NCBI GenBank assembly: GCA_963662715.1
Contig: OY759724.1
Coordinates: 2,850,001-2,882,000 of the forward strand
Reading direction: 5' to 3'
DNA length: 32,000 nt
Origin: Candidatus Omnitrophota bacterium
GTDB taxonomy: Bacteria > Omnitrophota > Gorgyraeia > Zapsychrales > JANLHA01
The position numbers and the translations under genes were made by a program. The notes below the pieces were generated by a model. That model was given only the letters and a program-made list of their open reading frames with translations, searched no databases and had not been told where the DNA came from. This document shows positions 8,181-24,584 of the stretch, piece by piece (position 1 is the stretch's first letter; every line of letters starts with the position of its first letter).

Positions 8181-9446
8181 ATGCTCAAGGCCTACCCCCG
8201 ACATTCCGTGGATATTACAAAGCATGATTATAAACGGATGCTTGCTTTTTTGTTCGCCCCCCGGTCCGTCAAAGCCGGATATCTGAAGCGGTTCGAGCAA
8301 TCATTCGCCGGATATATCGGGACGCGGTTCGCTTTGTCCATGCCTTCCGCCAGGCTCGGTCTTTATGTCGTGTTGAAATATTTTAATTTCCCCGAGGGGA
8401 CGGAAGTTATTATCACGCCTTTCACCCATCAGAGTATCTTCACGGTTCTCAAAACATTCCGGCTGAAGCCTGTTTTTGTTGACATAGACCCCAAGACCCA
8501 TAACACCAATCCTTCTTTGGTCAAACAGTGTATCTCAGAAAAAACGCGCCTTATGGTTTTGACCCACATGTGGGGGCAGGCCTGTGATATGGACGCTTTT
8601 ATGACGCTGAAAGAGGAATACGGCCTGAAAATCATTGAAGACTGCGCCATGGCGGCCGGGGCCGTTTATAAAGGCAAAAAAGTAGGCAGTTACGGAGATG
8701 CCAGCATATTTAGTTTCGGGAAGGCGAAAGCCATTTGTGCTTTCGGAGGAGGAATGTTGTGCCTGAATGACGAGAAGATGCATGAGTTTGTCGCTTCGGT
8801 CATTAAGGATTTTCAGCCGCCCCGGCCGTTTTCTCTGGTCTTTTCCGTGATCAATTCCGTGGTCGCCAATGTCCTCACCCGTCCGCGATGTTTTTTCCTG
8901 TCGCTTTATCCGGTTATGCGGCTTTTTAATCTCAGAGACCCCTACAATCCGGTTGAGCATAAAAAGGATTCCGAAGTCATTCTGGAGCAGATGCCGGAAG
9001 AATGGAAAGTCCGGTTATCGTCTTTTCAGGCGGCCATAGGCCTTGAACAGCTTAAGACTTTGGAAGAACGCAATGACCGCAGAACCCAAAATGCCCGGAT
9101 TTTGAACTATGCCTTGAAGGACGTCCCGGATATTGGTCTGCCGGAGACGTCAGAACGCGGGCAGCATATTTATCTCTACTATGCGGTTCACATAAAGAAG
9201 AAAACCGATCTGGACAATCTCCGGAAGAAACTGTTGGCGCGGGCCGTGGATACCCAGCTGAATGAATTGACGAATCCCGAGCAGTTAAGCATTTTTGGCG
9301 CGGACAGCGGGTCTTTTCCGGTCTTTGACAAGATCTCTCCCAACATTCTTGTTATTCCCAACGGAATAATGCTGAATGAGCAGGATATCCATGCGGTGGC
9401 ACAGGCGGTCAGGGAATGCCTTGGGCCCGGCGGGGGTGAGATGTAA
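8181..9446 (+). CDS. DegT/DnrJ/EryC1/StrS-family PLP-dependent aminotransferase (paralog 2, long form with internal insertion)
   Basis: 421 aa. YLKRFEQSFAGYIG. IIEDCAMAAGAVYKGKKVGSYGDASIFSFGKAKAICAFGGGML with Lys in FGKAK. RLSSFQAAIGLEQLKTL. Between the Lys region and the QAAxGxxQL helix there is a segment ~50 aa longer than in paralog 1, partly hydrophobic. Confidence 0.8.
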   Translation: MLKAYPRHSVDITKHDYKRMLAFLFAPRSVKAGYLKRFEQSFAGYIGTRFALSMPSARLGLYVVLKYFNFPEGTEVIITPFTHQSIFTVLKTFRLKPVFVDIDPKTHNTNPSLVKQCISEKTRLMVLTHMWGQACDMDAFMTLKEEYGLKIIEDCAMAAGAVYKGKKVGSYGDASIFSFGKAKAICAFGGGMLCLNDEKMHEFVASVIKDFQPPRPFSLVFSVINSVVANVLTRPRCFFLSLYPVMRLFNLRDPYNPVEHKKDSEVILEQMPEEWKVRLSSFQAAIGLEQLKTLEERNDRRTQNARILNYALKDVPDIGLPETSERGQHIYLYYAVHIKKKTDLDNLRKKLLARAVDTQLNELTNPEQLSIFGADSGSFPVFDKISPNILVIPNGIMLNEQDIHAVAQAVRECLGPGGGEM

Positions 9447-9449
9447 GAT

Positions 9450-10763
9450 ATGATAAAGGATGATAAGTTCAGTCACATCGTCAGGGCGACTGAAAGCGTG
9501 TGTCCGGTTTGTCTGGACTCCGTTCAGGCATTGGTGCAAATCCGGGGGGAGTCTGTTTATCTTGAAAAGACATGTCCCCGGCACGGAGATTTCCGCGTCC
9601 TCTTATCGAAACACGCCAAAGATTATAAGGAGTTGTCGGATTGCTATTTCTATTTTATCCCGCAGGCTTTGGTGCAGAAAGAATATTACCTCTGCGCAAC
9701 CATGCAGTGCAATATCTCCTGCCCGATTTGTTTTCTGGATTACTGTCAGGACAGGCAGGACCTCTCTTTTGAACGTCTGGCAGACAACCTCCGCGATAAA
9801 ACAGACGTGGAAAGATTTACTTTTTCCCATGGCGAACCGACCGTCAGTCCGCAATTACCCGATATGATCCGGGCTTTGAAACGGGCGAATAAACTGGTTA
9901 ACATTCATACCAACGGCGTCAGACTGGCGGATTATGATTATGCGCTTTCCTTGAGGAACGCCGGGCTCGACCATGTCAGCCTGCAGTTCGATGGTTTCCG
10001 GGACGAGATTTATCAGGCTCTCCGGGGGGCGCGGTTATTGGATGTTAAATTAAAAGCTCTGGAGAACCTCAAACGTTTATCCTTGCCGGTCACTTTAAAT
10101 GTCACGGTGGCCAAGGAGGTGAACGATGATGAATGCGGCCGGATCTTCGATTATGTCGTTAAAAATGATTTCATGAAAGACCTGAGTTATATCACTTATT
10201 GCCATTATTCTCCTGACGATAAGGATATGGAACGTTATATGATGCCCGATGATCTTTTGGTTATTCTGGAAAAACACACCCAAGGCCGGCTGCAAAGAGA
10301 AAATATCATCCATTTTCAGAAACTATATTATGCTTATCTCAGTGCGTCGCATAAGAGAAAATGCTTCAATTATTATCATTATTTTATCGTCCGGACAAAG
10401 ACAGGCTATCGCGGAATCGACCAGTACCTGGATTTAAAAAAGATCGCGCGGGCCATAGACCGCTGCAAAGATCAAAAGAAGAAGATGACGCGCTGGAGGC
10501 TTTATAAAATATTGCTGACATCCTTGAAAAAATCCAGCCTGTTTTTGATCCCTTATGGGGTGTCCCTGGTGTTGAGAGGGGGATATCCCAAAAAACCGGG
10601 ACGGTTCCTGGTGGTGACCTTTGCCAGTATCTGTGACCCTTATAAGTATGATGCCACGGTCGCTTTGAATTGCGGGCAGGGGATTGTGACGCAGAAAAAT
10701 GAACAGGAAAGTTACGGTTCATATATTATCGAAGAAATGAAAACTTTAAGAGTCCAGTCATGA
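9450..10763 (+). CDS. Radical SAM protein with N-terminal CxxC...CxxH metal knuckle (COG1964 / Tes-GDGT-MAS-like architecture), paralog B
   Basis: 437 aa. C18-P-V-C21-x20-C42-P-R-H45. MQCNISCPIC. VSLQFDGF and ENLKRLSLPVTLNVTVAK. KCFNYYH and CDPYKYDATVALNC. Confidence 0.8.
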   Translation: MIKDDKFSHIVRATESVCPVCLDSVQALVQIRGESVYLEKTCPRHGDFRVLLSKHAKDYKELSDCYFYFIPQALVQKEYYLCATMQCNISCPICFLDYCQDRQDLSFERLADNLRDKTDVERFTFSHGEPTVSPQLPDMIRALKRANKLVNIHTNGVRLADYDYALSLRNAGLDHVSLQFDGFRDEIYQALRGARLLDVKLKALENLKRLSLPVTLNVTVAKEVNDDECGRIFDYVVKNDFMKDLSYITYCHYSPDDKDMERYMMPDDLLVILEKHTQGRLQRENIIHFQKLYYAYLSASHKRKCFNYYHYFIVRTKTGYRGIDQYLDLKKIARAIDRCKDQKKKMTRWRLYKILLTSLKKSSLFLIPYGVSLVLRGGYPKKPGRFLVVTFASICDPYKYDATVALNCGQGIVTQKNEQESYGSYIIEEMKTLRVQS

Positions 10764-12337
10764 AAATTGCCTTTGTCAATGATTCCTGCGAACGGTTAGG
10801 CGTGGAGTACATTTCGGCCGTCCTTAAACAACACGGCCACACCGTTAAGCTCTTCGCCGATCCCCAGCTGTTTAATGACGAAAATTTCACCATCGCTCCT
10901 TTCGCAAGGTTTTTTGACTATACGGAAGAACTTGTCGCGGATATCAAGGCGTTTCAGCCGGATTTAATCGCATTTTCCGTCGTGACCGACTTTTATCAAT
11001 GGGCCTGCCGCCTGGCCAGGCGGATTAAGTCTGAGATGGATGTCCCGGTCCTTTTCGGCGGTATTCATGCCACTTCCGTACCTGAAAAAGTCCTGCAGCA
11101 GGATTGTGTCGATATGGTCTGCCGGGGGGAGGGGGAATACGCTCTTTTGGATCTTGTCACGAGTATGGAGCGGGGGGCGATAGATTATGCCACCCGGAAT
11201 ATTTGGTTTAAAAAAGACGGCCGGGTTATTAGGAATGAAGTCCGCCCGTTGATAGAGAACCTGGATGAGCTTCCTTTTGCGGACAAAGATCTTTTTTACG
11301 AAGCCAGCGCCCATTTTTCCCGGTGTTATTTCTTAATGACCAACCGCGGGTGCGCCTATGCCTGTAGTTATTGCTGCAATTCGTTCCTTAAAAAATTTTA
11401 TCAGGACAAGGGGAAATATCTGCGGTTCCGCAGCGTCTCTAACGTTATCCGGGAACTGGTATGGGCCAAGGAAAAGTACGGTATCCGCATGATCCGTATC
11501 CACGACGATGATTTCCTGACCCATGACGTCAAGTGGTTCGAAGAATTTTCCGGGCAGTATGCCGGGCGGATCAAAGCCCCGTTCGCCTGTTTTACTCATC
11601 CCAACAGCGTGACGGAACGCAAGGCCGCTCTTCTTAAGAAAGCGGGCTGTCATGATATCGAAGTGGGGGTCCAGTCCATCTCCGCCAAAACACGTTACGA
11701 GGTCTTAAACCGCCGTGTTTCCGATGAGCAGTTAAGCAAAGCCATCCGCATCTTAAAAGACGCCGGGATCAAAGTTATCACGGATAATATCCTGGGGCTC
11801 CCGCACCAAAGTGATCAGGAACTGCTGGATCTTATGAGATTTTATAATAAAAACCGGATCATGAAGATTTACTGTTTTGGGTTCCGGCACTACCCGGCCA
11901 CGGATATCGTGGAGTATTCCCGAAAAGCCTCTTTGCTGACCCGGGAGGATGTTGAGAACCTGGAAAACGGCGTGAATGTCAAAACATTCATCCAGAGCGG
12001 GGATATCTTAAGCCGGGAAGCCAAACAGCTGCAGACTTTCTTTGCGTTTCTGCTTTATCTTCCGGAATCCTTTAACAATTTTATACTGAACAGAAAATTG
12101 TACCGTTTTTTCATTCCGTTACCGTATTATATTCTTGTTATTTTCTCCAACTGGCTGAGGATCCCGTATCGTTACAACTGGGCGTTGCACATTACGGTTT
12201 GCCGTTACGGCACATATATTTTCAGGCGTTTCAAGAGCAAGCTGCGGTTTCCCGGGATGTTTGCCCGGGGAAAAAGAACTGATTTTATTCTTAAACATCC
12301 CGTAGGGCAGGAATGCGGTTCAGGAGAGAGGGCTTGA
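10760..12337 (+). CDS. B12-binding-domain radical SAM protein (class B-like), tandem paralog 1
   Basis: 525 aa. Rossmann-like N-domain MKIAFVNDSCERLGVEYISAVLKQHGH...PDLIAFSVVTDFYQWA...FGGIHATSVPEKVL...VCRGEGEYALLDL. Radical SAM motif NRGCAYACSYCC. C-terminal hydrophobic/basic extension. ATGA overlap with the upstream gene. Confidence 0.85.
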   Translation: MKIAFVNDSCERLGVEYISAVLKQHGHTVKLFADPQLFNDENFTIAPFARFFDYTEELVADIKAFQPDLIAFSVVTDFYQWACRLARRIKSEMDVPVLFGGIHATSVPEKVLQQDCVDMVCRGEGEYALLDLVTSMERGAIDYATRNIWFKKDGRVIRNEVRPLIENLDELPFADKDLFYEASAHFSRCYFLMTNRGCAYACSYCCNSFLKKFYQDKGKYLRFRSVSNVIRELVWAKEKYGIRMIRIHDDDFLTHDVKWFEEFSGQYAGRIKAPFACFTHPNSVTERKAALLKKAGCHDIEVGVQSISAKTRYEVLNRRVSDEQLSKAIRILKDAGIKVITDNILGLPHQSDQELLDLMRFYNKNRIMKIYCFGFRHYPATDIVEYSRKASLLTREDVENLENGVNVKTFIQSGDILSREAKQLQTFFAFLLYLPESFNNFILNRKLYRFFIPLPYYILVIFSNWLRIPYRYNWALHITVCRYGTYIFRRFKSKLRFPGMFARGKRTDFILKHPVGQECGSGERA

Positions 12338-13671
12338 TGAAGACCTATTTTATAACAGCTTCGACATTCTGCATGGAAAGAATGCTGGACTGCCAGAAAA
12401 TTTCCGATTACTTAAAAATGAACGGCTGGCGGCCGGTGAGGCGGATCAAGAAAGCCGGTTTGATTATTGTCAGCACATGTTCTTTCGGCCGGGAAGAAGA
12501 CGATAGCTCGCTCGATTATATCCGGTTTTACCTGCGCCGGAAGTTGCCTGAAGCACAATTTTTTATCATCGGGTGCGTGCCGGCGATCAATCCCGAACAG
12601 CTTGCCTCTCTGGGCGATATCCCCACGCTTTCTCCCACCACGTTGTCCCGGCTCGACACTTTGCTGCAGCCGTCTGTGAAATTCGCGGATGTCCCGGAGC
12701 CGAACAAGATTCTTGCCGCGGAGGTCATGCACAGCGTTTTTTTGAAAAAAGCTCTCTGGCTCCGGTCCTACGTGCGGCAGGCCTTGAAGGATGTCCCGCC
12801 CGGCCCGGCGGTTCTGAGAAAAGGGGGGCAAGCGCTGAAAACCGGGATCAAGTACTTTCCGGTGCTGAAATCACACATTAATCCTTTCCTCTCCTGCAAC
12901 CGGAACGGATTTTATTATCTGCGGATTTCCAAAGGGTGTCTGGGGAGCTGCAGCTACTGTGCCAAGAGACATTCTACCGGGCGGCTCAGGAGCAAACCGG
13001 ATGATATGATCGTTCAGGAGTTTCAAAAAGGATTGCAAGCCGGGGAGAAAAGGTTCTACCTCTTAACGGAAGACGTCGGGTGCTACGGAATTGATCAGGA
13101 AACGACTGTCATGGCTCTGCTGAAAAGGATATTTGCTGTGGGGCATGCCCAGGAATTCCGGATTGTTGTTTCCAATTTTAACGCCCGCTGGTTTGTCAAG
13201 TATTATGACGAACTGGAAGAGCTCTTTGTGAAATATCAGACCAAAATTCTTTATGTGCAGATTCCGATCCAATCCGGGAGTACGCGGATTTTAGGGCTGA
13301 TGGACCGGCATTATACGGCGGAAGACCTGAAAGAAAAACTGCTGGCTTTAAGGCGCAAGGCCCCGGCGCTTAACCTAACGACAGACATGATTGCCGGTTT
13401 TCCCGGAGAAACCGATGAGGATTTTGAATTAACCAAGCAGTTCGTCTCTGAAATCCGGTTTCAGCATATTGATATTTTTGGATATGAACACCGGCCCAAC
13501 ACCCGGGCGGGGGCCCTGACGGGGCAGCTTTCCCAGGAAGTGATAGACCAAAGGGTTTTCGAACTCGCCCGATGGCAGAATAAATATTCCCAAACAAGGA
13601 CTGTCATCGGCAAATTGATCGAGGTGGCCAAGGAAAATGCGCAGCGGTACCGGACGAATTCAAGACAATAA
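12337..13671 (+). CDS. Methylthiotransferase-like radical SAM protein (MiaB/RimO/MtaB-type N-domain + rSAM core) with a short, apparently TRAM-less C-terminus
   Basis: Track ORF starts at 12313, but ATG 12337 shares one base with the upstream TGA (TGATG) and gives MKTYFITASTFCMERM.... Cys triad C12/C48/C80 has spacing 36/32, versus 36/31 in this window's own MtaB. Radical SAM motif ISKGCLGSCSYCAKRHSTGRLRSKP. The tail after the core ends ...IGKLIEVAKENAQRYRTNSRQ. Confidence 0.75.
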   Translation: MKTYFITASTFCMERMLDCQKISDYLKMNGWRPVRRIKKAGLIIVSTCSFGREEDDSSLDYIRFYLRRKLPEAQFFIIGCVPAINPEQLASLGDIPTLSPTTLSRLDTLLQPSVKFADVPEPNKILAAEVMHSVFLKKALWLRSYVRQALKDVPPGPAVLRKGGQALKTGIKYFPVLKSHINPFLSCNRNGFYYLRISKGCLGSCSYCAKRHSTGRLRSKPDDMIVQEFQKGLQAGEKRFYLLTEDVGCYGIDQETTVMALLKRIFAVGHAQEFRIVVSNFNARWFVKYYDELEELFVKYQTKILYVQIPIQSGSTRILGLMDRHYTAEDLKEKLLALRRKAPALNLTTDMIAGFPGETDEDFELTKQFVSEIRFQHIDIFGYEHRPNTRAGALTGQLSQEVIDQRVFELARWQNKYSQTRTVIGKLIEVAKENAQRYRTNSRQ

Positions 13672-13673
13672 AC

Positions 13674-15182
13674 ATGATGAAGAAAAAAGGTTTGAAAATT
13701 GCTTTTGTCAATGATTCCTGCGAGCATTTAGGGGTTGAGTATATATCAGCCGTCTTGAAGGCCGCAGGCCATCAGACGCAACTGTTTGTCGACCCCTTGT
13801 TATTTGATGATGAATTTATTACGGTCAAAGCCCTAAGCAAGTGTTTTGATTATAAAACGAAAATTATCAAGGAATTAAAAAGTTACGGGCCTGACCTTAT
13901 CACCATGTCGGTTGTCTCCAGTTTTTATCCCTGGGCTTCCGGTATGGCGCGTTTAATCAAACAGGAGATTCCTGTTCCCGTCATTATGGGCGGCGCTCAT
14001 CCCACGGCTGTCCCGGAGAGGGTCATTCAGAATGAGTTTGTTGATATGGTCTGTGTCGGAGAAGGGGAGTATTCTATGCTGGAGCTGGCCAACAGCATGG
14101 CGGCGGGCAAGGTCGATACCACTATTAAGAATATCTGGTTTAAACAAGACGGACGGATCATACGCAATGAGCTGCGGCCCCTTATCGATAACCTGGATGA
14201 GCTTCCCATGCCGGATAAGGAGCTTTACTATTCCGCCAGCCCGCATTTTTCCCAAAGCTATTATATTACCGCCAGCCGGGGGTGTCCTTATGCCTGCAGT
14301 TATTGCTGCAACTCTTACCTGCGGTCCCTGTATAAAGGGCTGGGGCCTTATCGTCGTCAGCGCAGCCCAGGTCATGTGATCGGGGAATTGGTCGAGGCGA
14401 AAAAACGCTTTGCCATTGATCCGGTTTTCTTCCTGGATGACTGCTTTGCCTACGATCTTCAGTGGCTTAAAGAGTTTGCCCCGGCCTACCGGAAGCAGGT
14501 CGGCATAAGATTTTATTGTATGATGTTCCCTGACGATAAAATGGAGGAAGCCTTAAAATATCTGAAATTAGCCGGATGCGGAGAGATTGAAATCGGGGTG
14601 CAGTCCTGGGATGAAGATGTCCGGCGGAATATTTTTCACCGCCGTGTTTCAAACGAGACGATGATCCGGACGATGAAGCTTATTAAAAAAGAGAATATCA
14701 ATCTGGTGACCGGAGATATTCTGGGCTACCCGGGACAAAGAGAAGAGCATATCCTGAAGGCCGCGCATATTTATACGGAGATAAAACCCAGCCGGACCTA
14801 TTCTTTTATCCTGAAATATTTCCCCAAAACACAGATCACGGAAGAGGCGGTTAAAAAGGGCCAGCTAAAAGGTGAGGATGTGGAAAAGATCCTGGACGGG
14901 CATTACGGGAAATATCTGTCGAAAGACGGGAGCATGACGGAAAAAGAGGTGATGCAGTATCTGTTCCTTTTCCTGCTTGTGCGCATCCTGCCCGTCCGGA
15001 TGGCGCGGGCTGTTATCCGTAAACGTCTCTACCGGAAATTTCCGGTGGTTCTTACGCCGGCCGCCATCTCCATTTTGAACAATTTTTCGACATCCACTTT
15101 TGAATCTAAAATTAACCGGCGAAGCGCATGGCACCGGTATATTTATTTTTTAAAGAAGATGTTCTTTAAAGGCAAACGATGA
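13674..15182 (+). CDS. B12-binding-domain radical SAM protein, tandem paralog 2
   Basis: 502 aa. LKIAFVNDSCEHLGVEYISAVLKAAGH, MGGAHPTAVPERVI, VCVGEGEYSMLEL, SRGCPYACSYCC. C-terminal VIRKRLYRKFPVVLTPAAISIL extension. Confidence 0.85.
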   Translation: MMKKKGLKIAFVNDSCEHLGVEYISAVLKAAGHQTQLFVDPLLFDDEFITVKALSKCFDYKTKIIKELKSYGPDLITMSVVSSFYPWASGMARLIKQEIPVPVIMGGAHPTAVPERVIQNEFVDMVCVGEGEYSMLELANSMAAGKVDTTIKNIWFKQDGRIIRNELRPLIDNLDELPMPDKELYYSASPHFSQSYYITASRGCPYACSYCCNSYLRSLYKGLGPYRRQRSPGHVIGELVEAKKRFAIDPVFFLDDCFAYDLQWLKEFAPAYRKQVGIRFYCMMFPDDKMEEALKYLKLAGCGEIEIGVQSWDEDVRRNIFHRRVSNETMIRTMKLIKKENINLVTGDILGYPGQREEHILKAAHIYTEIKPSRTYSFILKYFPKTQITEEAVKKGQLKGEDVEKILDGHYGKYLSKDGSMTEKEVMQYLFLFLLVRILPVRMARAVIRKRLYRKFPVVLTPAAISILNNFSTSTFESKINRRSAWHRYIYFLKKMFFKGKR

Positions 15183-16675
15183 AAATCGCATTTATCAATG
15201 ATTCCGCTCAGCAGCTGGGCATTCAGTACATGTCCGCTGTGCTGAAACAGCACGGCCATGATGTGAGGCTGTTTATGGACCCCCAGCTGTTTGCTGACGA
15301 TGTTATACAGATCAAAAGGCTCAACCGCCTGCTTGACATGAGAAAAGACATCGTCCGGCGGGTCAAGGACTATGCTCCGGATCTGGTCGGCATATCCGTT
15401 GTCACTGATTTTTATCAATGGGCCAGCCAGATAGCCCGGATGATCAAGGATGAAATGGATGTCCCTATCATTGCCGGAGGCATCCATCCGACCTCGGTTC
15501 CGGAACGGGTCCTGCAGGATGAATGCTTTGACATGGTGTGCCTGGGGGAGGGGGAATTTCCGCTTTTGGAATTAGCCGACAGCATGCAAAGAGGAAAAAT
15601 GGACACCTCCATCCCGAATATCTGGTTTAAAGAAAACGGCCGGATCATTAAAAATGAACTCCGGCCGCTTCTTGAAGACCTTGACGCTTTGCCGCTGCCG
15701 GACACGGACTTGTATTATTCCGTCAGCCCTCATTTTAGAAGGACCGGGTTGTATATTACGATGACGTCCCGCGGCTGTCCGAATGCCTGCAGTTACTGCT
15801 GTTTCTCCTATCTGCAGGACCTGTATAAAGGCAAGGGCAAACGGATCAGGCAGCGCAGCGTTCAAAATGTGATTGAAGAGTTGAGAATCAATAAGGCAAA
15901 ATATAAAATAAAGTTTATCGCGTTTATGGATAACTGTTTCGGGTATGATGTGAAATGGCTCAGGGAATTCACCCCGGTTTACCGTTCGGAAATCGGCATA
16001 AAGTTCTGGTGCATCATGCACCCCAAAGACGTTACAGAAGAAACCCTCCGGCACCTCAAACAGGCCGGATGCCATACCATTGACATGGGCGTGCAGTCCT
16101 GGAACGAGGATATACGAAAAGAAGTCCTTCACCGGGATGTCGATAACGATACGATGGCCCGGGCTATTCAGATCGTTAAGGATGCCGGGATCGAAATTAT
16201 GACCGACAGCATTTTTGACCTGCCCGGGCAGACAGAAGAGGATGTCCTGGAAAGCGCCCGGAGATACGTTGAGATCAGGCCGAAGCGGATATATTTTTAC
16301 ATGTTACGGCATTATCCGAACACCCTCATAACCCGGTTGGCCAAACAAGATCAGCGGCTTGCGCCGGCCAGGTATGAAGAAGTGATGAGCGGGGTGAATG
16401 TCACGTCCTTTACGGTCGGCGGAGACCAGGTCAACCAGAGAATGATTCAGTTCCAAATCCTGTTTTATTTGATTGATCTGATCCCCAAAAGCATAAGCCG
16501 GTATATCATTCGCAAAAGACTTTATCGGTATTTCCCTGTGGCTTTGGGGCCGGCTATTATTGTCATCCTGCGCAATCTTTTGGCTTTTGATATGAATGCG
16601 CGGCTTCAACGCGCCTGGGCTTTTAATCGCTACGCCTATTTTATCTGGCAGAAATTAAAACCTTTAAAGAAATAA
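15179..16675 (+). CDS. B12-binding-domain radical SAM protein, tandem paralog 3
   Basis: 498 aa. MKIAFINDSAQQLGIQYMSAVLKQHGH, AGGIHPTSVPERVL, VCLGEGEFPLLEL, SRGCPNACSYCC. IIRKRLYRYFPVALGPAIIVIL tail. ATGA overlap with paralog 2. Confidence 0.85.
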   Translation: MKIAFINDSAQQLGIQYMSAVLKQHGHDVRLFMDPQLFADDVIQIKRLNRLLDMRKDIVRRVKDYAPDLVGISVVTDFYQWASQIARMIKDEMDVPIIAGGIHPTSVPERVLQDECFDMVCLGEGEFPLLELADSMQRGKMDTSIPNIWFKENGRIIKNELRPLLEDLDALPLPDTDLYYSVSPHFRRTGLYITMTSRGCPNACSYCCFSYLQDLYKGKGKRIRQRSVQNVIEELRINKAKYKIKFIAFMDNCFGYDVKWLREFTPVYRSEIGIKFWCIMHPKDVTEETLRHLKQAGCHTIDMGVQSWNEDIRKEVLHRDVDNDTMARAIQIVKDAGIEIMTDSIFDLPGQTEEDVLESARRYVEIRPKRIYFYMLRHYPNTLITRLAKQDQRLAPARYEEVMSGVNVTSFTVGGDQVNQRMIQFQILFYLIDLIPKSISRYIIRKRLYRYFPVALGPAIIVILRNLLAFDMNARLQRAWAFNRYAYFIWQKLKPLKK

Positions 16676-16690
16676 GCGGACTGGCAAATC

Positions 16691-18220
16691 ATGAAAATCG
16701 CTTTTGTCAATGATTGTATTGAACGGCTCGGCGTCGAATATATTTCCGCTCTTCTGAAGAACGCGGGACACGACGTTAAGCTTTTCGTCGATCCGCAGCT
16801 GTTTGATGATGTCCATATTCATCACAAGGCGTTAAACCGATATTTCGACCACAAGCAAAAGATCATCGCGGACCTGCTGGAATACCGGCCGGACCTGATC
16901 GCTTTCTCCGTGGACACAGAATCCTATGCCTGGGCCAGCGGCATGGCCCGGGCCGTTAAATCCCGCATGGAGGCGCCTGTTATATTTGGCGGGATCCACC
17001 CTTCATCCGTTCCTGACCATGTCATCAGGAACGACGCCGTCGATATCCTGTGCGTCGGCGAGGGGGAATACCCCATGCTGGAACTTGCGGAAAGCATGGC
17101 CAGAGGGGAAATGGACACACATATTAGCAATTTGTGGTTTAAACAGCAGGGAAAGATTGTCAGAAATCCTCTGCGCCCGTTGCTCAAGGACCTCGATGTT
17201 CTGCCTTACGCCGATCATGATCTTTTCTACAGTCACAGCCCGTATTTTCAGCAAGGGTACGGCACCATAGTCTCCCGGGGGTGCCCTTACACTTGCAGTT
17301 ACTGCTGTCATTCCTATTTGCGCAAGCTCTATCAGGCAAACGGGACATATCTCCGTCTGCGCAGCGTGAGTAATGTGATTGAAGAATTGAAAGATCATGT
17401 GGCGAAATATGATGTCGGGACGATCACTTTTTTTGATGATAATTTCGGCTATAATTTCAAATGGCTGGAAGAATTTTCCCGTGAATATGCCCGGGCCATT
17501 AAGAAAAGGTTTAAAGTGACGACTCATCCGGAGATTGTGTCCCGCGAATATATCCGTCTGCTGAAAGACGCGGGCTGCTGTTCGGTGGATCTGGGCATCC
17601 AGTCCTGGGATCGGCAGGTGAGACGCTATTGGTTCCAGAGAGATGTTGAAACAGGCGTGATGCGGCGGGCGATGGAGCTTATCAAAGAAGCACGCCTGGA
17701 ATTGATCTGCGATAATATTTTTAACGTCCCTGCGCAGGATGATGAACAGTATATTCAGACGCTGTTGCCGTATACGGATATTAAACCGCATCGGATCATA
17801 TTTAACCAGTTGAAATATTATCCCGGCGTGGCCATCACCGAAAAGGCCAAAAGGGAGGGGTTCATCGGCGAGGAAAGATACCGCATGATATTGGACGGGG
17901 CGGATCAAAAGGGGGTTTATTTGGACGAAGTCGTGCTGAAAGAGCGGGAACGGAAGAGTTTTGTTAAAATGAAAGTTTTTTTGTATCTCATGGATTGTTT
18001 CCCCAAGAAATTTTCCCGCTATGTCATCATGAAAAAGATTTACCGTTATTTCCCCGGTATTTTTAACCCGGCGTTTTTTCTGATGTTCCGGACCCTTTTT
18101 TCCTCTGATTCCGACACGCAATATTTAAAACAAAGAACCTTGGCGAGATACCGTTATCATATCGGCAGACGGCTAAGGTTGAAATTATTTTCAAGGAGAC
18201 ATAATGAACAGTCAAAGTGA
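16691..18220 (+). CDS. B12-binding-domain radical SAM protein, tandem paralog 4
   Basis: 509 aa. MKIAFVNDCIERLGVEYISALLKNAGH, FGGIHPSSVPDHVI, LCVGEGEYPMLEL, SRGCPYTCSYCC. VIMKKIYRYFPGIFNPAFFLMF tail. Confidence 0.85.
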   Translation: MKIAFVNDCIERLGVEYISALLKNAGHDVKLFVDPQLFDDVHIHHKALNRYFDHKQKIIADLLEYRPDLIAFSVDTESYAWASGMARAVKSRMEAPVIFGGIHPSSVPDHVIRNDAVDILCVGEGEYPMLELAESMARGEMDTHISNLWFKQQGKIVRNPLRPLLKDLDVLPYADHDLFYSHSPYFQQGYGTIVSRGCPYTCSYCCHSYLRKLYQANGTYLRLRSVSNVIEELKDHVAKYDVGTITFFDDNFGYNFKWLEEFSREYARAIKKRFKVTTHPEIVSREYIRLLKDAGCCSVDLGIQSWDRQVRRYWFQRDVETGVMRRAMELIKEARLELICDNIFNVPAQDDEQYIQTLLPYTDIKPHRIIFNQLKYYPGVAITEKAKREGFIGEERYRMILDGADQKGVYLDEVVLKERERKSFVKMKVFLYLMDCFPKKFSRYVIMKKIYRYFPGIFNPAFFLMFRTLFSSDSDTQYLKQRTLARYRYHIGRRLRLKLFSRRHNEQSK

Positions 18221-19544
18221 CAGAATGATCCGGGAAACGCAAAGTCTATGCCCGGTGTGCGGCCGTAAAATCCAGGCGGCTATTGTCGAGTCGGAAGGCC
18301 GTGTTTATTTGAAAAAAAACTGCGGCGAGCACGGCATGTTCCGGATCAGGGTTTCCAGGCACGCCTGGTACTACAAGGCGCTGACGGACTATTATTTCAG
18401 GGTTATGCCGGAGACTATGCCTCAAAAACGTTTTTATATTTATTTCAGCAACCGCTGCAATCTGCATTGCCCGATCTGTCTGCTGGAGCCCAACCAGGAT
18501 AAAATGGCGGATATCGATCTGGAACGTTTTAAAAAGGTTATCAGGGAAAACCCGAAGTTCCGTTATTACATTTACGGCGCGGAGCCGACATTGCGTCAGG
18601 ATCTGCCGGAGTGGATCCGGCTGCTGAAAGATTACGGGAATATGGTCAATATTCACAGTAACGGCATTAAGCTGGATGATTTTGAATATTTGCAGGAACT
18701 GCAGGCATGCGGGCTGGATTATCTGAGCCTGCAGTTTGACGGTTTTGACGATGATATTTATCTCCGGTTGAGAAACCAGAAGCTGCTGGACAGGAAAATG
18801 AAAGTCCTGGAAAATCTGGAAAAGCTGAATATCCCTACCGGGCTGAATGTCACAATCGCCAAAAACGTCAACGAAGCCCAGGTGAAGCCCATTATTGATT
18901 ATGCCGTTAAAAGGCCGTTTATCCGGGATGTGAGTTTCGCCTCGGTGTCCTTCCTGGGGGATGCGGAAAAGAATTTTTCTGCCGAAGATCTGCTCATGCC
19001 GGACGACTTGGTCGACATGGCCGAGGAGCAAACTCAGGGGGAGATTTCCCGGCGCAGTATGTATCTGTTTCAAAAGTTATATTATGCCGTTTTATCTGTT
19101 TTTAACATCCGGCGCTGTTATAATTTTCACCATATGGCCCTGGTGCGTGACCGGCAAGGTTACCAGACATTTGATGCCCTGTTTGATTTGGCGGATTTTG
19201 AAAAGGTCCTGGACAGATATTCTCAATGGGCGGGGAAAAGCAAAACCAAAGCCTCGTTATATTTCTGGGGGCAGCTTGTGCTGAATATGTTGACCAAAAA
19301 GCCCTTTGAAAAATTAAAGACTCTGCCGCTCAACATGCTTCTGCCGGGGAATATCCGAAGCCCCAAGATCCCGTCGAAAATCTTGCTGGTCAGCTTCGGA
19401 ACGGTTTGCGACAAGTATAAATATGATTCCGGTATTTCCAAATACTGCGGACAGGGTTTTGTATTCAATCAAAATGAGGATATCGTTTTGTCCGATTCGA
19501 TATCCGATGTGACGCTTTTACGTGAGGACCGGCAGTGTTTGTAG
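18204..19544 (+). CDS. Radical SAM protein with N-terminal CxxC...CxxH metal knuckle (COG1964 / Tes-GDGT-MAS-like architecture), paralog C
   Basis: 446 aa. C16-P-V-C19-x20-C40-G-E-H43. NRCNLHCPIC. LSLQFDGF and ENLEKLNIPTGLNVTIAK. RCYNFHH and CDKYKYDSGISKYC. AAGGAG SD at 18193-18198. 17-nt overlap with the upstream gene. Confidence 0.8.
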   Translation: MNSQSDRMIRETQSLCPVCGRKIQAAIVESEGRVYLKKNCGEHGMFRIRVSRHAWYYKALTDYYFRVMPETMPQKRFYIYFSNRCNLHCPICLLEPNQDKMADIDLERFKKVIRENPKFRYYIYGAEPTLRQDLPEWIRLLKDYGNMVNIHSNGIKLDDFEYLQELQACGLDYLSLQFDGFDDDIYLRLRNQKLLDRKMKVLENLEKLNIPTGLNVTIAKNVNEAQVKPIIDYAVKRPFIRDVSFASVSFLGDAEKNFSAEDLLMPDDLVDMAEEQTQGEISRRSMYLFQKLYYAVLSVFNIRRCYNFHHMALVRDRQGYQTFDALFDLADFEKVLDRYSQWAGKSKTKASLYFWGQLVLNMLTKKPFEKLKTLPLNMLLPGNIRSPKIPSKILLVSFGTVCDKYKYDSGISKYCGQGFVFNQNEDIVLSDSISDVTLLREDRQCL

Positions 19545-19577
19545 TGCGAAACGTTTTTTATTACCGAGCGGGGTACG

Positions 19578-21098
19578 ATGAAAATAGCCTTTGTGAATGA
19601 TTCCTGTGAACGTTTGGGGGTGGGGTATATTGCCGCCCTTTTAAGATCCCGCGGGCATGAGGTCCGGATATATATTGACCCGCAATATTTTAAAGACGAA
19701 AATATCAACATCAAATATCTGCAGAATATTTGTGATCGTCAGGCCCGGCTGATATCCCGTCTCAAAACCTATAACCCCGACCTTATCGGCTTTTCTGTTG
19801 TCTCCGATTTTTACCCCTGGGCCTGTGCCTTGGCGCAGTCCATTAAACGGGAGATGGCCGCGCCGATCATCTTTGGGGGGATTCATCCGTCTTCCGTCCC
19901 GGACCGCGTTATTCAGAAAGATTTTGTGGATATGGTCTGTGTGGGGGAGGGGGAATACCCCATGCTGGAGCTTGCGGAGAGCCTGGAACGGGGCAAGATA
20001 GATACTTCGATCAAAAATATCTGGTTTAAAAAGAACGGTACGGTCATAAAGAATGAACAGCGCCTTTTACTGACCGACCTGGACCGGCTCCCGTTTCCGG
20101 AAAAAGATCTTTTTTACGCCTCGAGCCCGTATCTGTCGCGGTGTTACTATATTATGGCGAGCCGGGGATGCGCGTATTCCTGCAGTTACTGCTGTCATTC
20201 CTACCTCAGACAAATGTGTCAGGGGAAAGGCCCGTACTTCAGGCAAAGAAGCGTTGATAATGTCTTGGCGGAACTGATTGAAGCTAAAAACAGGTACCCG
20301 GTCAAGTATGTGAGATTTTTTGACGACAGCCTGGGACTGAATCTCAAATGGCTTAAGGAATTTTCTGAAAAATACCCGAAAACCGTGGGGCTGCCTTTCA
20401 TGTGTTATATGTATCCCAGCCATATTTCAGAGGTGACGGCGCACTACCTGAAACAGGCCGGGTGCTGCGAAGTGGAGATCGGTGTTCAGAGTCTTAACGA
20501 GGATTTAAGCCGGAATGTTTTGCATCGCAACCTGTCTGAACAGCAGATCGCGCAAGCTATCGATATCCTTAAAAAGGAAAAAATCCGCCTGGTGGCGGAT
20601 AACATTGTCGGCCTGCCCGGACAGGAAGAATCGGATATCCTTCATATGGCGGAATTTTACAATAAACGGAGAGTGAACAGGATTTATTTTTTCTGGCTGC
20701 GTTATTATCCCGGAACAGTGATTGCGGAATATGCCAAAGAACAGGGGTACCTGAGTGAAGAAGAATATAACAGCATCATGGACGGTCGGCCGAGCCGGCC
20801 TTTTTCAAGGGGAGGGAATACTCTGAACCGAAAATGGCTGGGCCTGCAATTTCTGTTATTTCTTCTTCCTTTTCTCCCGCCACGGATTGTGAACTGGATC
20901 ATCGAGAAAAAGATTTACAGGCATTTTAATAAAATCCGTTCTCCGGGGATTTTTACCGCCCTGACAAGTTTGTTCTCAACAGCGTATAATGATAAAATTC
21001 TTATCAGGCGGGAACTGGCCCGTTACAGCTGTTTGTTTAAAAGGCTGCGTGAACCTCAAAAAACGAAAAAAAATCTCCAACGGCCTCCTGTTTTTTAA
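19578..21098 (+). CDS. B12-binding-domain radical SAM protein, tandem paralog 5
   Basis: 506 aa. MKIAFVNDSCERLGVGYIAALLRSRGH, FGGIHPSSVPDRVI, VCVGEGEYPMLEL, SRGCAYSCSYCC. IIEKKIYRHFNKIRSPGIFTAL tail. Confidence 0.85.
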   Translation: MKIAFVNDSCERLGVGYIAALLRSRGHEVRIYIDPQYFKDENINIKYLQNICDRQARLISRLKTYNPDLIGFSVVSDFYPWACALAQSIKREMAAPIIFGGIHPSSVPDRVIQKDFVDMVCVGEGEYPMLELAESLERGKIDTSIKNIWFKKNGTVIKNEQRLLLTDLDRLPFPEKDLFYASSPYLSRCYYIMASRGCAYSCSYCCHSYLRQMCQGKGPYFRQRSVDNVLAELIEAKNRYPVKYVRFFDDSLGLNLKWLKEFSEKYPKTVGLPFMCYMYPSHISEVTAHYLKQAGCCEVEIGVQSLNEDLSRNVLHRNLSEQQIAQAIDILKKEKIRLVADNIVGLPGQEESDILHMAEFYNKRRVNRIYFFWLRYYPGTVIAEYAKEQGYLSEEEYNSIMDGRPSRPFSRGGNTLNRKWLGLQFLLFLLPFLPPRIVNWIIEKKIYRHFNKIRSPGIFTALTSLFSTAYNDKILIRRELARYSCLFKRLREPQKTKKNLQRPPVF

Positions 21099-21136
21099 AG
21101 AAATGTTGGCCTTTTGAAAAGAAAGTTTCTGCATCC

Positions 21137-22747
21137 ATGCGAAAATTCAATTTGTTAGCCGTTTTCTTGAAATACCGCATCCTGTTGCTCGTATTGCTGT
21201 TGATTGATATTCTACGAAATCCTTTTTATCTTAATTTTGTTGAGTCCTCGGACCGCCTGCGGGAATTCTCCAAATACATTTTCTTGAGATCAGCCGTTTT
21301 AAATCAAATTATTGACAACGGGGTAACGGTTTTAAATAAGCAATTTCATTTGTTGCAGGGTGCGTTCACCAATATTTTGCTTTATTTCGGCGGCTATGTT
21401 TTGCTGTGTGTCATCTCTGCGGTTTCCCGGAAGAATGCGGACCGCCGCGCCCATCCGTCCCTTGTCCCGGGAATACTGATTATCCTGTGGTCTTTTATTT
21501 ACGTTTTTTGTCTGAAGGATTTTCCTCCCGGCATAAGTTTCTGCCTTATGGCCTGTATGGTCGGGGTTGCGGGCATGGATTTCATCCTTTTTTTCAGGGA
21601 AGGTTTTTTCGATAATAAATCTAATAAAAACATTTTTGCCGGTTTTTTTACGTCCGTTATTTTTCTGAGTGAATTGTTCTGCGCCCCGCTCTATTGGCAA
21701 TTTTTATGTGTGTTGCAGGGGAAGAAATTCCCGAAAAAGATTTCCGTTGTTATTCAGCACGGGCATTTTATGCTCTTTATGGCTGTGGCGCTGATTTTCC
21801 TGTCTCCCCTTGAGAGCCCGTCCATTATTGAGATGCGACAGATCAAAAAAGGCCAGTACTATGGTCTGCAGTATTATAAGGATAATATCCTGGTGGCGCT
21901 TAATGATTTCGAAGGACAGGTGGAACGTATCCACGTGGGTCATGATGTGTCTACAAAGGTCATTTACCGTTCGACGTTTCCCCGGGGCACGGAGGAGGCC
22001 ATGGGGGAGAGGCTGGCTTTGAGCCCTGAGAGAGAAGAGGTGTATTTTACGGACAGGAAACAAAGCCAGCTGATCGTTGCGGATGACCGCAGTCAGAAAA
22101 TAAAAGCAATGATTTCTTCCGATGTCTTCGATATGGGGGATAATGCTCTTGCTTACATGAACGGTCACGTTTATGGACTTACGGAAGAAAAACTGTGCGT
22201 TTATAAAATTGATATGTCGAGCGCCGCTCCCCAACATGTCCCGCGTTATTGCATCAATGAAGGAGAGGGAGGGATCATCCTGCCTAACGGGCCGCGTAAT
22301 GTTTTATATGCCGCGAACTGGAATGATCCGGAAAACCGATTTTTTATTTATGAGATTGACGGCCAGACACTGGATATTCACAGACGTTTCCCGATGCCGG
22401 CTGCCGGAGTGGCTATGGCCGCCGAAAACGGCAAAAAACTGTATTGTATCTGGCCAAGGAATCTTTATGTTTTAGATGCCGGGAATTTTCGTGTTGTTGA
22501 TAAAATGAAGCTTTCTTACGGCCTGATGAACACGTTTTCCCTGGATGATACGAATCAATTGGTATTCGGGGCGAACCATTTCACCAATATCATCGAAGTC
22601 ATCGATTTAAAGACCAAGAAAACAGTGCAATATTTCCGGGCGGGGATCGGCAATTCCCATATCAGCAGAATCACGGTTGATGCGGAGAATAAAAATTTTT
22701 ATGCCACGGTATTCCGCGACGGCATTTATATGGGGCATTATGAATAG
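21137..22747 (+). CDS. Polytopic membrane protein (about 6 N-terminal TM segments) with C-terminal beta-propeller-like repeat domain; function unknown
   Basis: 536 aa. Hydrophobic segments include ILLLVLLLIDIL, YFGGYVLLCVISAV, LVPGILIILWSFIYVFCL, FCLMACMVGVAGMDFILFF and FMLFMAVALIFLSPL. The C-terminal ~300 aa carries repeated LY(v)xxxxxxxxxVxVIDxxT-type strands (NVLYAANWND...FFIYEIDGQT; NLYVLDAGNFRVVDKM; NIIEVIDLKTKKTV), as in YVTN/YncE-type propellers. Confidence 0.5.
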   Translation: MRKFNLLAVFLKYRILLLVLLLIDILRNPFYLNFVESSDRLREFSKYIFLRSAVLNQIIDNGVTVLNKQFHLLQGAFTNILLYFGGYVLLCVISAVSRKNADRRAHPSLVPGILIILWSFIYVFCLKDFPPGISFCLMACMVGVAGMDFILFFREGFFDNKSNKNIFAGFFTSVIFLSELFCAPLYWQFLCVLQGKKFPKKISVVIQHGHFMLFMAVALIFLSPLESPSIIEMRQIKKGQYYGLQYYKDNILVALNDFEGQVERIHVGHDVSTKVIYRSTFPRGTEEAMGERLALSPEREEVYFTDRKQSQLIVADDRSQKIKAMISSDVFDMGDNALAYMNGHVYGLTEEKLCVYKIDMSSAAPQHVPRYCINEGEGGIILPNGPRNVLYAANWNDPENRFFIYEIDGQTLDIHRRFPMPAAGVAMAAENGKKLYCIWPRNLYVLDAGNFRVVDKMKLSYGLMNTFSLDDTNQLVFGANHFTNIIEVIDLKTKKTVQYFRAGIGNSHISRITVDAENKNFYATVFRDGIYMGHYE

Positions 22748-23855: not shown

Positions 23856-24584
23856 ATGCTAAATCAAACGATTTCTCTGGTTGTTCCTGTTTATAATGAG
23901 GCGGAAATCATCGCGGAAACAGTTGCCGTTTTTGACGACGCCTTAAGGAGCATCTGCCGGGATTACGAAATCATTATCGTGGACGACGGAAGCGTTGATG
24001 AAACCCCGGGGATTCTTCAGCGCCTCTGTTCCCAGCACGTTCGTTTAAAGATTATGCATAATTCTGCCAATATCGGAAGCGGGGCCAGCCTTTGGCGGGG
24101 CTTTCAGCAGGCGGGCAAAGACCTTGTCGTCAGCAATTTCGCGGACAGGCCTTTTGATGTTACGGAGCTGGGAAGAATTATCCCGTCCGTTGATTTCAGC
24201 GCCACAGACTTCGTCGTGGTTGTCCGGCAGGACAGAAGCGCAAACACACCCTATCGTAAGATCACGTCTTTGACGAATTATTGGCTTATCCGATGCCTTT
24301 TCCGAATTGAGATTTCTGATTTCCAATTTGTGCAGATTTACAGGCGGGACATCCTGAAGGGCGTTCGCATTGACTCCCAGGAAACATTTGTTCCCCCCGA
24401 GCTTATGATCAGGCTGATTCAAAAGGGATATCGGTATCAGGAGGTTGTTTCTTCTTTTTATAGACGGCCCGGGGGCCAGCCCAAGTGCGGTCATCCCGGG
24501 AAAATCATGAAAAGTATATTTGATATTTTAAAATTTTGGATATCCTGGGAAATCTTGGGGAAAAAGGACGGAGGGGAGCGATGA
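23856..24584 (+). CDS. Family 2 glycosyltransferase (polyprenyl-phosphate sugar synthase-like: DPM1/GtrB/CsbB/ArnC type), short form without C-terminal TM helices
   Basis: 242 aa. ISLVVPVYNEAEIIAETV...YEIIIVDDGSVDETPGIL...NSANIGSGASLWRGF is the GT-A N-terminal signature. Confidence 0.8.
   Translation: MLNQTISLVVPVYNEAEIIAETVAVFDDALRSICRDYEIIIVDDGSVDETPGILQRLCSQHVRLKIMHNSANIGSGASLWRGFQQAGKDLVVSNFADRPFDVTELGRIIPSVDFSATDFVVVVRQDRSANTPYRKITSLTNYWLIRCLFRIEISDFQFVQIYRRDILKGVRIDSQETFVPPELMIRLIQKGYRYQEVVSSFYRRPGGQPKCGHPGKIMKSIFDILKFWISWEILGKKDGGER

Follow-up and report, generated by a model that had tools for sequence, protein, structure and literature searches.

Five differentiated class B radical SAM paralogs in a putative envelope glycan operon of an Omnitrophota bacterium

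The stretch of DNA analyzed here (the window, 32,000 nucleotides in length) comes from a Candidatus Omnitrophota bacterium (contig OY759724.1 of assembly GCA_963662715.1) and contains an operon at the heart of which lie five paralogous genes coding for radical S-adenosylmethionine (SAM) proteins with a vitamin B12-type domain, here termed B12 paralogs 1 to 5. As delimited from the list of open reading frames (ORFs), the operon comprises 17 genes over 22.4 kb of the forward strand (4763-27145), in which neighboring genes either overlap or are separated by 49 nt at most. Ahead of it lies a gap of 400 nt in which promoter-like sites occur, and no cobalamin or other riboswitch was detected upstream, there being no Rfam match anywhere in the window. 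Ten of the genes encode radical SAM proteins (five of B12 type, three of Tes/HMPTM type, one MiaB-like and one with a SPASM domain), and these are located between the aminotransferases and the transfer machinery of the operon. The genes of the operon, and the two that converge with it, are the following.

4763-5830, forward strand: gene 1, DegT-family sugar aminotransferase at the operon start (PF01041, 279 bits; nearest NCBIfam models PseC, LegC and ArnB, all below cut-off)
5814-6788, forward strand: gene 2, radical SAM/SPASM protein (Pfam Radical_SAM and SPASM)
6791-8179, forward strand: gene 3, Tes/HMPTM-like radical SAM protein 1 (Pfam/NCBIfam, Zn_ribbon_HMPTM)
8181-9446, forward strand: gene 4, second DegT-family aminotransferase (PF01041, 237 bits)
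9450-10763, forward strand: gene 5, Tes/HMPTM-like radical SAM protein 2 (Pfam/NCBIfam, Zn_ribbon_HMPTM)
10760-12337, forward strand: gene 6, B12 paralog 1, 525 aa (B12-binding, 68 bits; Radical_SAM, 85.5 bits)
12313-13671, forward strand: gene 7, MiaB-like radical SAM protein (Pfam UPF0004 and Radical_SAM, without TRAM)
13674-15182, forward strand: gene 8, B12 paralog 2, 502 aa (Pfam)
15179-16675, forward strand: gene 9, B12 paralog 3, 498 aa, the one modeled (Pfam, AlphaFold2, Foldseek)
16691-18220, forward strand: gene 10, B12 paralog 4, 509 aa (Pfam)
18204-19544, forward strand: gene 11, Tes/HMPTM-like radical SAM protein with Zn-ribbon and radical SAM domains (Zn_ribbon_HMPTM, 61.7 bits)
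19578-21098, forward strand: gene 12, B12 paralog 5, 506 aa (Pfam)
21137-22747, forward strand: gene 13, membrane protein without known family, 536 aa (hydropathy)
22797-23837, forward strand: gene 14, LPG_synthase_TM (flippase-like) membrane protein (PF03706, 75 bits against a cut-off of 33.4)
23856-24584, forward strand: gene 15, glycosyltransferase of family 2 (GT2), ArnC/PpgS-like (PF00535, 70 bits; best NCBIfam models ArnC and PpgS, below cut-off)
24536-25279, forward strand: gene 16, WbqC-like protein, a family of O-antigen clusters (PF08889, 249 bits)
25310-27145, forward strand: gene 17, polytopic membrane protein at the operon end, YfhO/GT-C-like (YfhO, E 4e-10; GT-C_AftD weak; many hydrophobic segments)
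27157-28650, reverse strand: CapK/PaaK-like adenylate-forming enzyme, convergent with the operon (NCBIfam PaaK and DVU_1553-type matches below cut-off)
28632-30131, reverse strand: paralog 6, degenerate (CSYCL), with an eroded B12 domain (Radical_SAM, 29.4 bits against a cut-off of 29.5)

The initial annotation, made from the sequence by eye, had grouped the five B12-type genes into a single family, and this grouping is borne out by their Pfam matches and their mutual identity. Every one of the five products (498-525 aa) scores above the gathering cut-offs for B12-binding (PF02310; 57-73 bits, cut-off 32.1) and Radical_SAM (PF04055; 72-86 bits, cut-off 29.5), and pairwise identity over the whole protein is 40-49%. 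This identity reaches 53-62% over residues 1-140, in agreement with the early estimate that about half of the N-terminal domain is shared, falls to 39-51% in the core and is lowest, at 19-33%, in the last ~98 residues. The conserved blocks singled out in that annotation are found in all five proteins, apart from small departures: NRGC in paralog 1, GGAHPTAVP in paralog 2, DMGVQS in paralog 3 and both NLWFK and DLGIQS in paralog 4. The genes had also been described as a tandem array, which holds insofar as they form one run, but the run is not strictly contiguous, as the MiaB-like gene and a Tes/HMPTM-like gene are interleaved in it.

An alignment of 87 close family members reveals which of these features are general. 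The three cysteines of the CX3CX2C motif (C200, C204 and C207) occur in all 87 sequences, and each of the 33 family-invariant residues is kept in the five paralogs. In the N-terminal domain, S73 and the G100-G101-x-H103 motif are invariant or nearly so. The additional cysteine directly after CX3CX2C, correctly reported for the five paralogs (CSYCC) and as replaced in paralog 6 (CSYCL), is present in 65 of the 87 members and is thus frequent, albeit dispensable. Three cysteines outside the cluster motif (C121, C278 and C298 in the numbering of paralog 3, with codons at about 15539, 16010 and 16070 of the window) are found in 86, 82 and 84 of the 87 sequences, respectively, paralog 4 having Val at position 278, and they could form an auxiliary site or act as hydrogen-atom donors.

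The AlphaFold2 model of paralog 3, built on the same 87-sequence alignment, is of high confidence (pLDDT 93.6, pTM 0.91), and the best Foldseek matches to it in the PDB, without exception of class B type, are TsrM (E 2e-23), MgmA, CysS, AprD4, TokK and OxsB (TMq 0.62-0.67, identity 15-19%). TsrM, MgmA, CysS, TokK and OxsB (E 2e-23 to 1e-18, TMq 0.62-0.66) are solved class B enzymes and, together with the two Pfam domains, this fold upholds the earlier assignment of the five proteins to class B, that is, to the B12-domain radical SAM enzymes. The nearest solved structures by sequence, all of them remote, are AprD4 (E 2e-15) and then CysS, TsrM, OxsB, MgmA and TokK. Matches to curated NCBIfam models fall well short of their cut-offs: HpnJ (TIGR03471) scores 98-114 bits against 577.6, TIGR04072 84-109 against 360, BchE (TIGR02026) 67-100 against 481, the HpnR hopanoid C-3 methylase (TIGR04367) 41-53 against 650, AprD4 (NF033070) 32-68 against 500, ApyD (NF050148) 69-97 against 750 and the TIGR03975 C-methyltransferase of ribosomally synthesized and post-translationally modified peptides (RiPPs) 51-69 against 282. 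GenK, GenD1, Fom3, PoyB/C, GrsA/B, HpnP and MoeK5, for which no model could be used, do not figure among the NCBIfam matches. The five paralogs belong, hence, to the class B superfamily but to none of the curated families tested.

We know of no sequence motif diagnostic of base-off/His-off cobalamin binding. Nevertheless, three lines of evidence favor a putative binding of cobalamin by the five paralogs: S73 and GG-x-H are near-invariant across the 87 members; the family profile aligns the residues of the N-terminal domain with those of the cobalamin binders OxsB, TokK, CysS and MgmA, whereas its alignment with AprD4 is confined to core residues 190-398; and paralog 6 has lost precisely these N-terminal motifs while keeping the radical SAM core. 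Paralog 6 is 26-28% identical to the five paralogs, gives no B12-binding match in Pfam and has TIGR04072 (57 bits) as its best NCBIfam model; it retains the core invariants and lacks G100-G101-x-H103, S73 and C121. The cobalamin-binding features are therefore not lost throughout the group, being kept in the five and eroded only in paralog 6.

Comparison with related loci, the closest named relatives being metagenome-assembled genomes of Omnitrophota, reveals that the five paralogs are individually conserved. Orthologs are 53-83% identical in the related Omnitrophota loci, as against 38-52% across paralogs. Those of paralog 1 (58-83%) occupy the first position of the array in six loci (L002-L005, L007 and L016), and the corresponding values are 68-75% for paralog 2, 56-82% for paralog 3, 53-62% for paralog 4 and 56-74% for paralog 5. 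Gene order is likewise maintained, the succession B12_1, MiaB-like, B12_2, B12_3, B12_4, Tes-like, [X], B12_5, [Y], membrane protein and flippase-like gene being found in eight loci (L002-L005, L008, L016, L079 and L080). Here, X and Y denote two extra paralogs on either side of B12_5, with X preceding it behind the Tes-like gene and Y following it, that are present in L003, L004, L008, L016, L079 and L080; no remnant of either could be detected in positions 19544-21137 of the window, from which both genes are cleanly lacking. The number of B12-type copies among the relatives ranges from 4 to 7 or more, and one locus (L036) harbors about ten, seven of them consecutive. The whole arrangement, including the CapK/PaaK-like gene, paralog 6 and a gene for a HEAT-repeat protein, recurs in L080. 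This last protein, hydrophobic over a segment near its N-terminus, is encoded at the flank of the cluster in both cases (30488-31660 on the forward strand of the window; 20941-21611 in L080).

In a neighbor-joining tree of 134 family sequences each of the five paralogs falls into an orthogroup of its own, with members in 7-9 other loci, and the smallest clade that contains all five has 58 leaves, all from the core Omnitrophota loci. Recent tandem duplication and gene dosage are ruled out as explanations of the array, as each paralog has its own orthogroup. Since these orthogroups are separate and positionally conserved, the comparison indicates that the expansion is old and that the five paralogs have distinct, individually selected functions. 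For the same reason, the several distinct tailoring steps anticipated from the number of copies appear very probable.

The most divergent part of the paralogs is their C-terminal extension. As the initial annotation had it, all five proteins end in an extension of ~80 aa with two hydrophobic stretches, in this case around a basic (R/K)(K/R)(L/I)YRxF motif, and with a Lys/Arg-rich end, the last 40 residues holding 8-11 Lys and Arg versus 1-3 Asp and Glu. The proposal of a DUF4070-type domain finds no support, because neither DUF4070 nor any other meaningful Pfam match came up at E<=10 when the six paralogs were scanned over their last 128-155 residues. In the model of paralog 3 the extension folds into helices at 420-432, 437-445, 448-451, 457-468 and 472-497 (block pLDDT 74-97). 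Its hydrophobic stretches correspond to helices of 9-13 residues, broken by Pro and Gly and too short to cross a bilayer (a transmembrane hairpin would require two of about 19 residues or more), and the last helix is a basic one of 26 residues. The maximum Kyte-Doolittle hydropathy in a 19-residue window (KD19) has a median of ~1.2 per stretch over the 87 members, only 5% of which attain 1.6 in both stretches and most of which lie under the transmembrane threshold; the membrane proteins of the same operon (the flippase-like and GT-C-like proteins and that encoded at 21137-22747) reach 2.3-2.5. Helix length and hydropathy thus rule out a transmembrane tail, and the membrane-like character first ascribed to the extension does not amount to membrane spanning. 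The tail is basic and aromatic, and the hydrophobic moment of its last helix is low (0.14); at most, it may possibly aid the enzyme in sitting at the membrane surface.

The pattern of conservation suggests a different role. Identity between the tails of different paralogs is 19-33%, compared to 41-78% among orthologs, for which the core yields 52-83%; the tail is therefore the most diverged part between paralogs, whereas among orthologs its conservation is close to that of the core. Four of its residues (P436, Y449, R484 and Y485) are near-invariant. C-terminal domains cap the barrel in other class B enzymes and, given that the tail diverges between paralogs but not among orthologs, it is most likely, judging from the model, a structured, paralog-specific helical subdomain that caps the barrel and sets substrate specificity, rather than a generic anchor. 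The tail is likely to pack against the core, as a pTM of 0.91 would be hard to reach with 16% of the chain unplaced. In a direct-coupling analysis (358 sequences, Neff 305) the top scores are dominated by indel-prone columns; it is too noisy to be relied on, and this extends to an unvalidated cluster coupling 181-191 and 217-222 with 452-460, such as would be expected of a tail packed on the core.

The family is large and widespread. An indexed search gave 2043 matches at E<=1e-10, the GTDB species genomes contain at least 581 loci, and a representative library gave 14,942 matches at E<=1e-30, the best 150 of which are all full-length and score above 470 bits. Full-length relatives with 35-43% identity occur in Elusimicrobia, in the Candidate Phyla Radiation (CPR: Falkowbacteria, Doudnabacteria and Parcubacteria) and in DPANN archaea (Woesearchaeota and Aenigmatarchaeota), as well as in Desulfobacterota, Nitrospinota, Planctomycetota and Bacteroidales, and they usually adjoin 1-8 other B12-type radical SAM genes. 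We sampled at random 137 same-strand neighbors within 3 kb in 47 distant loci. The census comprises 29 radical SAM proteins (12 of them with SPASM), 18 GT2 glycosyltransferases, ~16 class I methyltransferases, 8 nucleoside-diphosphate-sugar dehydratases or epimerases, 7 GT-C glycosyltransferases of the PMT_2 family, 5 GT1/4 glycosyltransferases and 4 polysaccharide deacetylases, and no lipid-synthesis family is among the 25 commonest. One relative from Falkowbacteria lies in a textbook polysaccharide cluster. Furthermore, ten candidate fusions of 738-931 aa (P0131, P0138, P0154, P0165, P0178, P0195, P0204, P0227, P0250 and P0270) combine the whole family protein, tail included, with a GT4 glycosyltransferase (P0227 and P0270), a class I methyltransferase (four cases), a SPASM radical SAM protein (three cases) or a Tes/HMPTM-like radical SAM protein (P0195). 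The outer genes of the operon, the distant neighbors, the Falkowbacteria cluster and the GT4 fusions point to a link of the family with the synthesis of glycans or glycoconjugates.

The genes interleaved with the B12 paralogs are also radical SAM genes. The MiaB-like protein (12313-13671) scores 224 bits with TIGR00089, under the cut-off of 251, keeps the three N-terminal cysteines of the auxiliary cluster, lacks the C-terminal RNA-binding TRAM domain and has an insertion of ~50 aa. Its position in the array is kept in related Omnitrophota operons, and its domain make-up suggests methylthiolation of a substrate other than RNA. The gene at 18204-19544, whose position is also kept in the relatives, has TrsS (180 bits, cut-off 490) and Tes (161 bits, cut-off 450) as its nearest NCBIfam models and is a member of neither family. 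The same two models, well below their cut-offs (124-161 bits against 450 for the tetraether synthase Tes), are the nearest for all three Tes/HMPTM-like proteins of the operon (6791-8179, 9450-10763 and 18204-19544). Outside the operon, paralog 6 and the CapK/PaaK-like gene form a pair that converges with it and is syntenic in L080, where the ortholog of the latter matches Pfam CapK_C, and PaaK-like genes recur next to B12 arrays in four further loci (L021, L036, L039 and L059).

Among the outer genes, the product of 21137-22747 could be assigned to no family by Pfam or NCBIfam; its N-terminal part shows about six hydrophobic segments and its C-terminal part a domain of ~300 aa with a weak DUF6923 match, and in L003, L004, L012 and L080 it is kept between the array and the flippase-like gene. 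The nearest models of the GT2 protein, ArnC and PpgS, are polyprenyl-phosphate sugar transferases. At the other end of the window, directly downstream of a housekeeping MtaB gene (550-1851), a forward-strand gene (1876-2757) encodes a TIR-domain protein (CAP12/Pycsar-type TIR, 42 bits) with an acidic, low-complexity N-terminus of ~150 aa rich in Pro, Ala and Glu; it appears unrelated to the operon.

Given these results, we consider it moderately likely that the five B12 paralogs are differentiated class B enzymes that form the core of an operon modifying a carrier-linked amino sugar for the cell envelope, with one distinct step for each. In such a pathway, the DegT aminotransferases would make the amino sugar, the ArnC/PpgS-like GT2 would load it onto polyprenyl phosphate and the radical SAM block would modify unactivated carbons of the sugar or of an acyl group that it bears. 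A single step would fall to each B12 paralog: the 5'-deoxyadenosyl radical generated from SAM at the [4Fe-4S] cluster would remove a hydrogen from one particular unactivated carbon and, in what is the most likely reaction, methylcobalamin would then give a methyl group to the substrate radical. The substrate would be an intermediate derived from the amino sugar and linked to a nucleotide or, as seems the more attractive option, to polyprenyl phosphate at the cytoplasmic face of the membrane, with the paralog-specific tails positioning successive intermediates. The flippase-like protein would finally carry the product across the membrane and the GT-C-like enzyme would transfer it to an acceptor in the envelope. 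A polyprenyl-phosphate-linked sugar, being anchored to the membrane, would also reconcile the lipid and the glycan views of these enzymes.

One may go further and postulate, in what seems to us a rather unlikely extension, that up to eleven radical SAM enzymes remodel the amino sugar carried by polyprenyl phosphate, or its N-acyl group, by successive radical C-C bond formations (C-methylations, Tes-type couplings and possibly methylthiolation). The resulting glycolipid would have a head group of hyper-branched or carbocyclic structure, and shorter toolkits of 2-9 B12-type genes would diversify surfaces across Omnitrophota, Elusimicrobia, CPR and DPANN.

Several considerations weigh against the modification of a carrier-linked amino sugar by five cobalamin-dependent enzymes. 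A Rossmann domain by itself is no proof of cobalamin binding, and, of the solved structures, it is the cobalamin-independent AprD4 that comes closest in sequence. All the NCBIfam matches are 4-10 fold under their cut-offs, so that superfamily precedent is the sole source of the proposed chemistry, and we are aware of no characterized member of this clade. Our search found no published description of the family or of such arrays in glycan clusters; the radical SAM arrays described beside nitrogenase paralogs in a paper on Elusimicrobia belong to another context, Nif families not being among the commonest neighbors of family members. The operon contains neither a sugar-nucleotide synthase nor a 4,6-dehydratase, so that its gene content does not point to a starting substrate, while the three Tes-like genes and the CapK/PaaK-like ligase could signal a hydrocarbon or acyl substrate. 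Finally, the neighbor-joining tree carries no bootstrap support, and the neighbor census was made with a simple ORF caller and covers the 25 commonest families.

The alternative that survives best, although we deem it fairly unlikely, places the five enzymes in the same glycan pathway, with some or all of them carrying out radical chemistry on the sugar that does not need cobalamin or does not methylate: an AprD4-like 1,2-diol dehydration feeding the DegT enzymes, a ring contraction akin to those of HpnJ or OxsB, or an epimerization. AprD4 is a cobalamin-independent radical SAM 1,2-diol dehydratase, which shows that the fold can exist without cobalamin, and it is not only the top sequence match (E 2e-15) but also equals the highest TMq obtained (0.66-0.67). 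The two or three DegT aminotransferases could aminate the keto products of such a reaction, HpnJ is the top NCBIfam model, and the near-invariant C121, C278 and C298 might be the hydrogen donors. The match to AprD4 is limited, however, to the core (190-398), the true cobalamin binders being those that align in the N-terminal domain; GG-x-H and S73, invariant or nearly so throughout the 87-sequence alignment, have been eroded in paralog 6 alone; and the AprD4 model yields 32-68 bits where 500 are needed. In addition, most characterized class B enzymes are methylases.

A second alternative, tailoring of the core membrane lipids and in essence the reading of the initial annotation, appears improbable. 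According to it, the B12 enzymes would methylate or cyclize hydrocarbon chains, the Tes-like proteins would couple them and the tail would dip into the bilayer, in parallel with GrsA/B, the methylases of glycerol dialkyl glycerol tetraethers, and HpnP/HpnR. It can appeal to the three Tes/HMPTM-like genes, to the presence of HpnJ and the "lipid biosynthesis B12-binding/radical SAM protein" model TIGR04072 among the best NCBIfam models, to the hydrophobic and basic tails and to the partial likeness of the CapK/PaaK-like ligase to the DVU_1553 family. Yet the HpnJ, TIGR04072, HpnR and Tes scores are all far below cut-off, the window contains no fatty-acid, isoprenoid or glycerolipid genes and none figure among the 25 commonest neighbor families, and the tail is not transmembrane-like. 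The occurrence of the family in glycan clusters of CPR and DPANN and its fusions to GT4 also speak against it. For these reasons, the C-terminal extension cannot be upheld as an argument for a lipid-embedded substrate, which is how it had been used at first: both the neighbors and the fusions speak for pathways of sugars and glycans.

Synthesis of a soluble aminoglycoside or aminocyclitol, with a DegT enzyme and a BtrN-like SPASM dehydrogenase building an aminocyclitol to be decorated by B12 methylases of the GenK/GenD1 kind, seems very improbable. The succession of DegT, SPASM, radical SAM and DegT genes is reminiscent of such a pathway, and radical SAM action on aminoglycosides has precedents in GenK, GenD1 and AprD4 (PMC5819394). 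Against this, the operon has neither a 2-deoxy-scyllo-inosose synthase nor a GT-B pseudosaccharide transferase and its end carries flippase-like, GT2 and GT-C genes typical of envelope glycosylation, and the family is common inside polysaccharide clusters of the tiny genomes of CPR and DPANN. As for RiPP maturation by class B methylases like PoyB/C or ApyD, it is hardly credible, for the ApyD and RiPP C-methyltransferase models are weak matches (69-97 against 750 bits and, for TIGR03975, 51-69 against 282), no plausible precursor ORF was found in the intergenic gaps of the window, which also lacks the peptidases and transporters typical of RiPP clusters, and the NCBIfam scores give no grouping of the paralogs with peptide-modifying enzymes.

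The preferred reading, modification of a carrier-linked amino sugar, can be set against several known systems. With TsrM, TokK, CysS, MgmA and OxsB, the five paralogs share an N-terminal Rossmann B12-type domain, a barrel with the CX3CX2C motif and a C-terminal helical region, but no more than 15-19% of residues are identical, no HMM E-value lies below 7e-14 and the C-terminal region of the paralogs matches no Pfam model. None of those enzymes has a glycan as its substrate: TsrM acts on Trp, TokK on a carbapenem, CysS on a benzoate thioester, MgmA on a protein Gln and OxsB on a nucleoside. HpnJ, a hopanoid-associated protein the substrate of which is a lipid-borne sugar head group, ranks first or second among the NCBIfam models of each of the five, if about five-fold below cut-off; the Pfam scan revealed no hopanoid genes in the window. 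AprD4 (PDB 6fd2), the best sequence match, acts on an amino sugar and is cobalamin-free, while the five paralogs keep the motifs of the Rossmann domain.

A working analogy for chemistry and substrate type is provided by GenK and GenD1, in gentamicin biosynthesis, and by MoeK5, in that of moenomycin, which carry out class B methylation of unactivated sugar carbons, the latter in a phosphoglycolipid pathway (PMC5819394; 10.1101/2023.10.20.563219). HpnJ belongs to the same set of close analogies, in which two of the enzymes act on lipid-anchored sugars. The analogy is one of function; GenK, GenD1 and MoeK5 are single genes in actinomycete antibiotic clusters, whereas here arrays of 4-7 genes occur in envelope glycosylation operons. 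The outer genes (DegT, ArnC/PpgS-like GT2, flippase-like and GT-C-like) match in role those of the Arn system (ArnB, ArnC, ArnE-F and ArnT), of mycobacterial PpgS/GT-C and of three-component GT2-flippase-GT-C systems, with all scores below equivalog cut-offs, but none of these systems has a block of ten radical SAM genes. Lastly, the pairing of paralog 6 with a PaaK/DVU_1553-like ligase resembles the association of TIGR04072 with DVU_1553-type ligases, with the difference that acyl carrier protein and ketosynthase genes are lacking here. What is known, therefore, is the superfamily and the type of chemistry; the clade, its C-terminal subdomain, the pathway context and the unusual density of radical SAM genes are new.

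Class B radical SAM enzymes catalyze some of the hardest reactions in biology, and the few dozen that are understood come almost entirely from antibiotic, cofactor or lipid pathways. The family described here is large and unannotated, is concentrated in uncultivated anaerobes and is located in cell-surface glycan clusters. A practical consequence concerns metagenome surveys, in which Tes-like and Grs-like matches in operons of this kind should not be taken for evidence of tetraether-lipid synthesis and Tes/HMPTM-like genes risk being miscounted as Tes. If C-methylation or remodeling of carrier-linked sugars were to prove true, it would constitute a new substrate class for B12 radical chemistry and would predict undescribed envelope glycans of unusual chemistry for Omnitrophota, CPR and DPANN, the surfaces of which mediate epibiotic or predatory lifestyles. 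With the substrate and the reaction as proposed here, the operon thus offers a strong lead for the enzymology and the surface chemistry of these uncultivated phyla.

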